Positions 25,451-29,129 are shown, numbered from the whole stretch's first letter. The stretch is 63,959 nucleotides of DNA, filler included, from Sphacelaria rigidula (GCA_964200075.2; 8 parts of 8 records of this genome joined end to end with filler, not necessarily neighbours in it); one strand, 5' to 3'. A program made the numbers and translations. The notes: generated by a model not told the origin, from the sequence alone.

Positions 25451-26006
25451 TTAATGCACGATATGTCGTACCTCGCAGTCTCCCACCTTGAAATCGGGGC
25501 ACTCTCAAGTGGACCACCGATTGATACCGACTGAACGACAACGTGCAGAACGACTGTGGGTCTCAGCGGACCCACTCTAATTTGCCCGTGCAGGCAGGTT
25601 TCCGGAACATGCCTGCGAAGACGCGTTCTTGTCCAAGTCTGACAGCAAAACTCTGTATTGCTTCCCTTGCCCGAGGGTGCTCGGTATGCATTAGGTTGGG
25701 ATTAGGAGTTCACGTTTCAATATCGGTGTATTTCGGTTGCGAACCTGCCTCATGCGTACTTCGGTCCGTTTGTTCCCATTGAAATTCAAGGCAGATTTCA
25801 AACTGCTCCTTGTATATCAAAACTCAAAGCTACACGGGCTGGCCAAAGGGACACCAAATCCCACGGTACAACTATACAGTTCATCTATAAAATCCCCTCA
25901 CGTTCACGGTACCGGATATGCAGCGGGCTCCTCCGCCCCGAGGCATCCGAACTAGATGCTGCAAGCCGTTTGTAATGGGAGACGGGAGTAGCTTCTCTTC
26001 GAAAAA

Positions 26007-26034
26007 GGGTGGTGTTGAGTAAACACCAGGGTTT
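26007..26034 (-). promoter_or_regulatory. Histone mRNA 3' stem-loop-like element of H3
   Basis: Minus strand reads AAACCC-TGGTGTT-TACTC-AACACCA-CCC, ~84 nt after the H3 stop. Matches the element behind H1 at 27 of 28 nt. Confidence 0.8.
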
Positions 26035-26117
26035 TTACTTCCCTTGGAGGATGGTCCCGCACACGAGCGTGCTTGGAACTCTGAAGGTTGGTCGCGGGGG
26101 TCATGGCTACGTCCGAC

Positions 26118-26528
26118 CTACGAGCGCTCGCCGCGGATGCGACGGGCCAGCTGGATGTCCTTGGGCATGATCGTCACGCGCTTGGCGTGGATGGCGCACA
26201 AGTTCGTGTCCTCGAACAGACCGACCAGGTAGGCCTCTGCGGCTTCCTGCAGGGCCAGCACAGCGGAGCCTTGGAAACGGAGGTCAGTCTTGAAGTCCTG
26301 CGCGATTTCGCGCACCAAGCGCTGGAAGGGTAGCTTGCGGATCAGCAGCTCGGTGGACTTCTGGTAGCGCCTGATCTCGCGAAGGGCCACGGTTCCAGGT
26401 CTGTAGCGGTGGGGTTTCTTCACACCGCCAGTGGCGGGCGCGGACTTGCGCGCGGCCTTGGTGGCCAGCTGCTTACGGGGGGCCTTGCCTCCGGTAGACT
26501 TACGAGCAGTTTGCTTGGTGCGAGCCAT
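26118..26528 (-). CDS. H3: Histone H3 (intronless, canonical/replication-type, A31)
   Basis: Full 136-aa [21 protein letters not shown]...RRIRGERS sequence. Confidence 0.99.
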
Positions 26529-26877
26529 TGTTGCTTCAGGGTATTGTTATACTTAGGTGGCCGGAGAGGGGTGCTGTTGGGTTGTGCTGTGTGAGGGGTG
26601 GGGGTTTGGCGGTTGGTCATGTCCGCCGTCGAAATTTGAATTTGTGCCTCACATCGTACAGGCAACAACATTGATACGAAGCGAAACCTATTTCAAATAT
26701 GAAAGGAATTGTCACAACAGCCAACGGGGGCGAATATGCGTTATTTGGAACTCCCTCAGATGGATCCTGAGAAGTGACAACGAACCCCCCTTCCCCCCCC
26801 CCCGCGTTCGCCACGGTTTCCATTCGTGAATTTGAACTGCCATCTTGATCTCCAGAACATCATCAAACACATTAACT
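26529..26877. promoter_or_regulatory. Bidirectional H3/H1 promoter with three ATTTGAA (CHR-like) motifs
   Basis: 349 nt between the divergent ATGs. TTTGAA at 26635-26640 and 26831-26836, and TTCAAA at 26692-26697. Confidence 0.6.
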
Positions 26878-28219
26878 ATGCCGACCTACAGTGTGGTGAG
26901 TGTAGATGGTCGGTGATCACGAGTCGATCCTGAGTGGATCTAGGCCAGTCGGTTTCAAACCCCAGTGTCCGAGCTTGGTCCGAGACGTTTTACATAGTGG
27001 ATCGTGTACTGGTTTGGAGTGAGATAATATGCTCTGTCCGCGGACGGAGCGTCCTGGTAGCCAGCGTAACAGACGATTATACACAGTATATCGCAGTAAG
27101 CACAAGTGGTTGTGGGCTGTAGGGGCGTCACTAGCTGCCCCTGCATACATCTCTGAGAGTGCATACTGCAGTTTTGTTTGACGCATGATGGTGTATGTAC
27201 ACTACATGGCCGCCAACTCCGATCACCCTCCGTGCTTCTCAGATGGTCTTTGAGGCCATCAAGGCCCTCAAGGAGCGGAATGGCTCAAGCCTCCAGGCTA
27301 TCAAGAAGTACATGGTCACCACCTACCCTGAGGTGGCCCCCAAGTTCGCGCCTCATCAGCTTCGCAGCGCACTCAAGAAAGGCACCGAGTCCGGGAAATT
27401 CATCAAGGTCAGTCATTATACCCAACGCCTGACACCCAAGTGTGTGATTTGTAATGTTGACCTGCCGTTGATTTCCTCGAGTCGATCATTCTCGATCCTT
27501 GCGCCACGACAAGAATGCGCTGTGCTAGGCTGGGCTGTATACTTGATGACTCGTGCGCTTGTGGGCACACCGTGAGACCTATGCGCCAAAGAATACGGCC
27601 GACCAGTGCTCTTCCATTTCGCACTCTACAGTACAGTGCAGTCAGTCTGGCATACCGCCTGTTGAATTAAACTCACTCCATCGGTAACATTCACCGCTCC
27701 ATTTCATCACAGGGGGGTTCCCTTTGCACACCGTCATCTGCCACACCAGCATTATCCCTCAATTTTGCAGCGCATCTTCGTGTCACCTCGGCCATTTGTC
27801 AGAAACGCATTCGCGTTATGATCCGACTATTATTATTGCAAGTTTGTTATCATGGTCACTGATGTACCACAACTCATCGCCATTTCGCACATCAATCTGG
27901 ATTGCAGGTGAAGAGCTCGTACAAGCTGTCGGCCGAGGCGAAGAAGCCCGCACCGAGGCCTAAAAAAAAAGTAGTGAAGAAGGCGGAGAAGAAGCCCGTC
28001 AAGAAGAAGGGAGTGAAGAAAACCCCGAAAAAGGTGGTGAAAAAGAAGGCCGTCAAGAAGACTGTGACCAAGAAGCCTGCCGGGACCCCCAAGAAGAAGG
28101 TCAAGAAGAAGACCGTGACCAAGAAGACGGGTGGCACCCCCAAGAAGAAAGTCGTCAAGAAAAAGCCCGCTGCGAAGAAGACTGCTCCCAAAAAGGCGGC
28201 CCCCAAGCCGGCCGCCTAA
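26878..28219 (+). CDS. H1: Linker histone H1, 3 exons: 26878-26895, 27243-27407, 27908-28219 (164 aa)
   Basis: Spliced product is MPTYSV|MVFEAIKALKERNGSSLQAIKKY...GKFIK|VKSSYKLS plus a Lys-rich tail with three TPKK sites. Donors are GTGAGT and GTCAGT, acceptors are CAG, and both introns are phase 0. Confidence 0.93.
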
Positions 28220-28279
28220 GTTCCTGTTGGGGGATTCATGCCCCTCCCCCATATCCACTCCACCGGGCAACCACCAAAC

Positions 28280-28307
28280 AAACCCTGGTGTTTCCTCAAC
28301 ACCACCC
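28280..28307 (+). promoter_or_regulatory. Histone mRNA 3' stem-loop-like element of H1
   Basis: AAACCC-TGGTGTT-TCCTC-AACACCA-CCC, 60 nt after the stop, followed by CGAAGGAAA. Confidence 0.8.
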
Positions 28308-29129
28308 ATACTGACGAAGGAAATACGCCACTTACTGCACTTCACCGTTTGGCCATTCTTCAATTTGGCACGTTCGCGGGACGCACGAGAACCCAGGATG
28401 CACCGAAGGCGCGGCGCATTTCTCAGTGGATTACACTTATATTGTGTAAGTTGTACAAGTTTTGCTAGGATTTTCACTCGTGCTTTTTCTGTACAGGGTC
28501 CCTCTAAAACTAAAATGTCACTGTTCTTCACTTTTCCGTGGGTATGTGATGAGTCATGCATACTCTTGTCCGAACCGGTTGGGAACTTAGGTGCTATGTG
28601 CATACGGACACCATATTTTCTTGTGCCCCAGGGTCGTGGAAGGCACGCACGCCCACATGTCTCTTCAAACTCGCGAGGAGTAGGTTCCTCTGCGAAGCCG
28701 TCTTGGCGTGCCTCCTGGGCCTGCTGCAACTGAGTTGGCGTTCTCTGAAACCTCTTCTTTGATGAGAAGGGGTGATACAAGGTTTCGTCAGTGACCACCT
28801 GCTCCTCCGTATCGTAAGTGTCGCTTCGACCCAGAATTAGAGATGCAGCGTGATCGGTCCCTCACTCGAGGGGGCTCGTACCCACGATCCTCAGGAGTCA
28901 GTCACAACCCCGTTTCGCCCGCAAAACGCCTGGGGGGGGGGGAGCATGTTAAGCATGCTACTTGTTATCACCTATCATATGACCATTAGTACAGTAGGTT
29001 ATCATAGGAGAATGAAGGAATTAAAAGCAGCCGAAGCACGATCTTGGCTGTACAGTAATTCATAGGCATGTCGTTTGCCAGCCACCTGTGATACACAATT
29101 ACAATTTTTCACGTTTTTTTTTTCCCTTC

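Follow-up and report, generated by a model that had tools for sequence, protein, structure and literature searches.

A 28-nt block, AAACCCTGGTGTTT(A/C)CTCAACACCACCC, is found behind both the histone H3 gene and the histone H1 gene in a stretch of DNA from the brown alga Sphacelaria rigidula (GCA_964200075.2; the whole stretch of 63,959 nt is called the window). To judge from sequence comparison, the two blocks are probably the form that the histone mRNA 3' stem-loop takes in brown algae, each followed by a purine-rich histone downstream element (HDE). The element is best read as a putative algal-type relative of the stem-loop bound by SLBP, with a U7-type element downstream of it.

Hairpin blocks behind H3 and H1

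The two blocks and the purine-rich elements that follow them are located as listed here.

26007..26034, minus strand: H3 3' stem-loop AAACCC-U-GGUGUU-UACUC-AACACC-A-CCC, with its 7-bp hairpin at 26028->26010
28280..28307, plus strand: H1 3' stem-loop AAACCC-U-GGUGUU-UCCUC-AACACC-A-CCC, with its 7-bp hairpin at 28286-28304
25992..26001, minus strand: purine-rich element CGAAGAGAAG behind H3, a candidate HDE, +10..+19 from the stem end
28315..28323, plus strand: purine-rich element CGAAGGAAA behind H1, a candidate HDE, +12..+20 from the stem end

Both hairpins are oriented in the sense direction, and their stems begin 90 nt (H3) and 67 nt (H1) from the stop codon. The string GGTGTT-N5-AACACC occurs twice in the 63,959 bases, each time linked to a histone gene, where 0.01 occurrences are expected; none of 100 shuffled sequences contains at least two. 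When the 400 nt past each stop codon are compared, the 28-nt block is the sole similarity, with a single mismatch (blastn-short E 5e-10), and the longest exact match after it is 8 nt. The mismatch sits in the loop. For both RNAs the minimum-energy fold is a 7-bp stem with a 5-nt loop (-7.4 kcal/mol for H1). An initial annotation of this DNA had given the block at 26034->26007 (minus) and 28280-28307 (plus), had described the 3' regions as otherwise unrelated and different within the block only in the loop, and had proposed a 7-bp stem with an outer U-A pair and a 5-nt loop. The coordinates and letters, the isolation of the match and the predicted fold were all reproduced, as were the identities that it assigned to the two genes.

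The stem, GGUGUU/AACACC with an additional outer U-A pair, contains the 6-bp core of a histone stem-loop, including the G-C at position 2 and the closing U-A. The flanks are also of the histone type, A/C-rich upstream (CAAACAAACCCU and GUAAAAACCCU) and ACCCA or ACCCU downstream. The element resembles the metazoan RF00032 system in its location shortly past the stop codon of replication-type histone genes, H1 among them, in a 6-bp core stem with G-C pairs at positions 1-2 and a closing U-A, in a loop that starts with U, in an A/C-rich 5' flank and an ACCC(A) 3' flank, and in a purine-rich element 10-20 nt further on. It differs in that the loops (UACUC behind H3, UCCUC behind H1) have 5 nt, not the 4 nt of the RF00032 type, with C as the third loop base; the middle of the stem reads UGU/ACA and not the consensus CUC/GAG; and there is an extra flanking U-A pair.

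At the gathering score, Rfam yields no match in the window. The RF00032 (Histone3) model nevertheless aligns both elements over its full length and retains GG..CC, the U-A that closes the stem, U as the first base of the loop and the ACC flank, with scores of 17.2 bits for H1 and 13.9 bits for H3 that do not reach the gathering score of 34. The related green-algal copies described below attain at most 25.4 bits with the same model.

Purine runs are present at the position where an HDE is expected: 9 nt behind H3 (GAAGAGAAG, +11..+19) and 8 nt behind H1 (GAAGGAAA, +13..+20). At +7..+24, the window background frequency is 0.043 for a purine run of at least 8 nt and 0.024 for one of at least 9 nt. 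The H1 element also holds a GGAA(A) core, as do the elements behind green-algal stem-loops. The initial annotation had described these elements as CGAAG-purine runs; the runs themselves were confirmed, but the CGAAG pentamer common to both is not significant by itself.

A motif scan of the 64-kb window for an anti-HDE combined with an Sm site returned no candidate U7 RNA. The Rfam U7 model (RF00066) matches 54430-54473 on the minus strand with 21.5 bits against a threshold of 34 (E 2.8). This match includes a CUCUUUCU stretch and an Sm-like site, UUUUUCUAG, but it has no 3' hairpin and runs antisense in a retroelement-like open reading frame (ORF), and we judge it to be due to chance. The ORF (54377-54658, plus strand) carries a Cys-X-Cys...His...Cys motif, which we take to resemble the terminal part of ORF2 in non-LTR retroelements. 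The U7-specific proteins LSM10 and LSM11 have homologues in stramenopiles, including Ectocarpus, according to passages of a recent preprint (bioRxiv 10.64898/2026.10.14.759114).

H3 and H1 form a divergently transcribed pair, with the following coding parts.

26118..26528, minus strand: histone H3 coding sequence, 136 aa, intronless (ORF and Pfam PF00125, E 2.6e-48)
27243..27407, plus strand: H1 exon coding for the N-terminal portion of the linker histone (globular) domain (Pfam PF00538, E 2.6e-18)
27908..28219, plus strand: last H1 exon, a Lys/Ala/Pro-rich tail (ORF; stop codon at 28217-28219)

The ORF translation of H3 reads AT at residues 31-32, contains GSAVL and ends in a C-terminal S. 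These residues match the signature that distinguishes brown-algal H3.1 from H3.3 (10.1101/2024.02.19.579948, legend to Fig. S22), and the window H3 is therefore assigned to the replication-coupled H3.1 type. For H1, the globular exon ends at a GT donor (27408), and the intron that follows ends at an AG acceptor (27906-27907); these splice sites are taken directly from the sequence, and the gene model is partial at its 5' end. The best named relatives of the globular exon are brown-algal H1 proteins, those of Pylaiella littoralis (76% identity) and of Hapterophycus and Ectocarpus (73%). Together with the H3 signature, these relatives place the window in a brown alga or a close relative. The last exon has no Pfam match, as is expected of a low-complexity tail. 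A screen of the 63,959 nt for basic reading frames revealed no further histone genes.

Related elements in metagenome contigs

Metagenome contigs were scanned with the pattern CCTGGTGTT-N5-AACACCACC, which occurs 84 times in 81 loci. The occurrences separate according to their loops.

Loops TATTC, TATTG, TATTA, CATTC and CATTT: 42 occurrences, with a histone coding sequence upstream on the same strand in 34/34 that could be assessed
Other loops: 38 occurrences, with a histone gene upstream in 0/37 that could be assessed
Loop TAATC, a dispersed repeat: 4 occurrences, no histone gene

Eight of the 42 occurrences with histone-type loops have less than 130 nt of contig upstream and were left unjudged. 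The 34 histone-linked copies follow H4 (19), H2A (8) and H3 (7) genes at 30-122 nt from the stop codon. GGAA is present at +7..+28 in 31 of the 36 unique histone-type copies, versus 4 of 35 others, and the 15 nt upstream are A/C-rich in the histone set only (36 unique copies against the others). One group (L037/L076) has the loop CAUUU and no GGAA. No H1 gene was found with an H1 query in the 81 loci (L001-L081), and among these sequences a stem-loop behind H1 is known from the window alone.

Other genes on the contigs identify the source of two groups of them. A GET3/ArsA protein encoded next to H3 and H4 (L042) is closest to those of Picochlorum (75%), Nannochloris and Chlorella, and an L5 ribosomal protein (L044) to those of Nannochloris (78%), Micractinium and Chlorella. 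By these protein comparisons, both contig groups are trebouxiophyte green algae and not stramenopiles. A 23-nt core, CCUGGUGUU-N5-AACACCACC, is identical in the window and in the trebouxiophyte contigs, so the element belongs to an algal type that both have in common and is no peculiarity of brown algae. Poly(A)-less histone mRNAs have been published for green algae, as has SLBP (PMC13130582; also PMC13525598), and a histone 3' palindrome or stem-loop was described in Chlamydomonas and Volvox (Fabry 1995 and Mueller 1990, as cited in PMC13525598 and PMC13130582). The window shares with the green-algal system a non-animal element that follows core histone genes as well as H1, and the arrangement of these genes in divergent pairs. 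It differs from the trebouxiophyte copies, which have loops of UAUUC (U at positions 1, 3 and 4) and similar sequences, an ACCA 3' flank and UGGAA downstream, in its UACUC and UCCUC loops, ACCC flank, GAAG-purine element and stramenopile host.

Because the loci were retrieved with the stem sequence of the window, the invariance of that stem is partly a matter of ascertainment, and the histone genes at the same loci that lack the exact pattern are the more telling test. A hairpin follows 8 of the 10 such genes that could be assessed, with slightly changed flanks or stem. The other two are one divergent H3 variant present on two contigs (L001:7979-8386 and L049), which has no stem-loop within 260 nt downstream. 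This variant is 85% identical to the window H3, with an altered N-terminal tail and loop-1 region, and points toward an H4 gene (convergent arrangement) that is followed by a stem-loop. It looks like a replacement histone.

Copies behind H2B genes read GGUGAU-UAUG-AUCACC, a compensatory change from U-A to A-U at one stem pair together with a 4-nt loop. Green-algal copies otherwise have mostly 5-nt loops; a 4-nt loop is seen only in these H2B copies and in one further copy with AUUC (L010:5351-5408, minus strand). The H2B form occurs at L025:1649-1706 (minus strand) and also in L023, L042 and L068, where H3, H4 and H2A on the same green-algal contig have GGUGUU stems and 5-nt loops. Since both loop sizes co-occur on one contig, the presumed binding protein must accept either. 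In an alignment of 31 unique copies, all 216 of 216 cells are paired and one of the seven pairs varies, on both sides.

A covariance model (R1) built from the 31 unique green-algal copies, with the window excluded, ranks the H1 element first (31.1 bits, E 4.7e-5) and the H3 element second (23.7 bits, E 0.0027) in the 64-kb window, the next hit scoring 11.2 bits; the stem part of these scores is matched by construction, the search pattern having been drawn from the window, while the match of the flanks and of the GGAA part is independent of it. The model places GGAAAU of the H1 element on its UGGAAa positions.

Control scans covered prokaryote genomes and viral contigs. A brown-alga-specific pattern has no occurrence in the prokaryote genomes. 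With a looser pattern, 596 Gb of prokaryote genomes contain 102 occurrences, four of them with histone-type loops. Three of these four lie on contigs with H2B, H3 or H4 genes and, because their contigs carry histone genes, are attributed to eukaryote contamination. The fourth, with the loop TCCTC, has unrelated flanks and was taken as chance. The viral scan gave 41 loci, 40 of which are unrelated matches in coding sequence. The only histone-type locus, L119, is a 37.9-kb contig of the viral collection that is the same green-algal contig as L049. We also observed two short contigs, L195 (filed under a Planctomycetaceae metagenome-assembled genome) and L212, that carry green-alga-type H2B, H3 and H4 genes together with the stem-loop. 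All three (L195, L212 and L119) look like eukaryote DNA mis-binned in prokaryote or viral collections.

The dispersed repeat with the TAATC loop is a unit of ~160 nt with sharp ends (TGTAACAGGG ... GTTGCTACA), found at L005:1300-1465, L022:410-575, in L040 (minus strand) and at L041:1-130. Three small hairpins come first in it, followed by a complete stem-loop of the histone type and by ACCATCTACTTGGAAC. The unit combines the stem-loop with a GGAA element and stands in four different flanking contexts, and the 700 nt upstream of it contain no histone coding sequence. It could represent a family of small RNA genes whose 3' ends are processed in the histone manner, or a repeat that originated from the 3' UTR of a histone gene.

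Several further features accompany the green-algal histone clusters and the window. Near-perfect GC-rich inverted repeats of ~75 nt (L024:2381-2456 and L025:2206-2280) occupy the divergent H2A-H2B promoter spacer of green-algal clusters, and their Rfam matches are microRNA-like only and sub-threshold (41.2 and 33.5 bits). For H4 genes at L025:128-600 (minus strand), L042:9320-9760 (minus strand), L012 and L018, the tblastn match begins at residue 10, and the codons for MSGRGKGGKG lie further upstream in another frame; this suggests an early intron in the replication-type H4 of that green-algal group. Within the window, long hairpin-forming inverted repeats at 17980-18212, 8019-8097 and 32081-32184 match many microRNA precursor models below threshold, on either strand, and are probably repeat elements.

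Proposed 3' processing and its alternatives

We model the action of the element on animal and green-algal systems. Pre-mRNA from the replication-coupled genes for H3.1 and H1 would form the hairpin, and an SLBP-type protein would bind it by reading the GG/CC base of the stem, the closing U-A, the U-rich loop and both flanks (A/C-rich and ACC). A U7-like snRNP would pair with the GAAG-purine run 10-20 nt downstream, and a CPSF73-type nuclease would cut a few bases past the stem, near ACCC(A/U). The mature mRNA would then end in the hairpin with no poly(A) tail, coupling the supply of histones to S phase. The initial annotation had proposed a divergent SLBP-type system in this alga. What survives of that proposal is a histone-specific and strand-specific stem-loop with a 5-nt loop, an A/C-rich 5' flank, an ACC(C) 3' flank and a purine element; what does not is that the system is this alga's own, given the identical core in trebouxiophytes.

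Several observations weigh against the assignment of the blocks to the histone stem-loop. The folding energy of the hairpins is no better than that of shuffled sequences (z -0.64 and -0.66), and the case consequently rests on conservation and not on thermodynamics. The RF00032 scores of 13.9 and 17.2 bits are far under the gathering score of 34. Both window loops have C and not U at position 3, with U at positions 1 and 4. A U at the first loop position is the rule in animals. At position 3, U is described as conserved across eukaryotic histone stem-loops (bioRxiv 10.64898/2026.10.14.759114), and the distances of 67 and 90 nt from stop codon to stem exceed the 25-60 nt quoted for animals in the same preprint. 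Furthermore, the GGAA core is absent from the purine run behind H3, the covariation rests on one stem pair, all 81 metagenome loci were found via the window's own stem, and the brown-algal sample consists of two genes, the H3 and H1 of the window.

As the main alternative, the hairpin may be a true histone stem-loop relic while the 3' ends arise by ordinary cleavage and polyadenylation downstream; with or without SLBP, it would then act on translation or stability only, or poly(A)-less and polyadenylated forms would be mixed. Such arrangements have precedents. Polyadenylated or dual 3' ends with a retained hairpin are known from mosses, ferns and early fungi (PMC13130582; bioRxiv 10.64898/2026.10.14.759114), moss and fern histone genes yielding poly(A)-less as well as polyadenylated forms (PMC13130582), and there are lineages in which stem-loops stand beside polyadenylation features and sparse U7 machinery (bioRxiv 10.64898/2026.10.14.759114). 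The failure to find a U7 candidate in the 64-kb window points the same way. We nonetheless regard this account as rather unlikely in view of the purine-rich element that both genes carry at the distance where an HDE is expected, with GGAA in 31/36 green-algal copies, the strict conservation of ACC(C) in the 3' flank, which fits a cleavage or trimming site, and the U7-specific LSM10 and LSM11 reported in Ectocarpus (bioRxiv 10.64898/2026.10.14.759114).

It is very improbable that the element acts as DNA, for example as a palindromic protein-binding, transcription-termination or replication-linked site behind histone genes. The stem is indeed a near-perfect DNA palindrome, 6 of its 7 pairs are invariant and its folding energy is unexceptional. 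The element as a whole is asymmetric, however: its 5' flank is A/C-rich, its loop is rich in pyrimidines, its 3' flank reads ACC, and GGAA lies downstream. It has the sense orientation in both copies of the window and in 34/34 of the histone-linked metagenome copies that could be assessed, its sole variable stem pair changes on both sides with pairing kept, and the homologous animal and green-algal element works as RNA (PMC13130582; bioRxiv 10.64898/2026.10.14.759114). A functionless match, arising by chance or by recent local copying between neighboring genes through gene conversion or duplication, is close to excluded. Such an origin would suit two genes only 2.3 kb apart and just two copies in the window, but not a block with E 5e-10 whose surrounding 400 nt have no similarity and whose lone difference is in the loop. 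The same core, moreover, is found behind green-algal histone genes, and only 4 of the 102 occurrences in 596 Gb of prokaryote genomes have histone-type loops, three of these on histone-gene contigs.

A processing signal bound by an SLBP-type protein stays our preferred reading of the blocks. In its widest form this reading would have brown algae produce poly(A)-less replication-coupled histone mRNAs, including that of H1, via an SLBP and U7-like pathway. The signal (GGUGUU/AACACC, a 5-nt loop, an ACC flank and a GGAA or GAAG-purine HDE) would be ancient, of algal type and common letter for letter to stramenopiles and green algae. Surveys that depend on the Rfam threshold or on 4-nt loops would miss it, the decay of the system reported for stramenopiles would be an artefact of detection, and a non-animal U7 RNA with a UUYYCUUCG-like 5' end would await discovery. 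We put this wider picture forward tentatively, with confidence slightly short of even. That the identity with green algae stems from transfer of SLBP and stem-loop as a pair, and not from common descent, is a variant that we consider distinctly unlikely.

Stem-loops downstream of stramenopile histone genes are likewise reported by Zhao, Bond and Ni Leathlobhair (2026; bioRxiv 10.64898/2026.10.14.759114). In passages of that preprint they are called further downstream and poorly conserved, and the detector is given as a 6-bp stem with a 4-nt loop that may miss other loop lengths. The window element, by contrast, is near the stop codon and highly conserved. A search of main texts for histone stem-loops or SLBP of brown algae and stramenopiles, which did not extend to Lopez and Samuelsson (2008) or to the first reports on Chlamydomonas and Volvox, yielded only this preprint and no description of the element.

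Significance for brown algae

The classic exception to polyadenylation is the formation of histone mRNA 3' ends through SLBP and U7, whose origin outside animals is actively debated. Histone stem-loops are already known from non-animal lineages; the brown-algal form with a 5-nt loop appears to be new. The locus suggests that the signal retained by brown algae is sharply conserved and differs by one loop base, so that the Rfam threshold and detectors of 4-nt loops miss it. If this is true, the element would provide a concrete motif for annotating the 3' ends of brown-algal histone genes, a natural test of the way in which SLBP senses the size of the loop and a defined complementary sequence with which to seek a non-animal U7 RNA. 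Brown-algal transcriptomes obtained by poly(A) selection would also under-sample the replication-coupled histone mRNAs. The pathway is testable, Ectocarpus being a genetic model.

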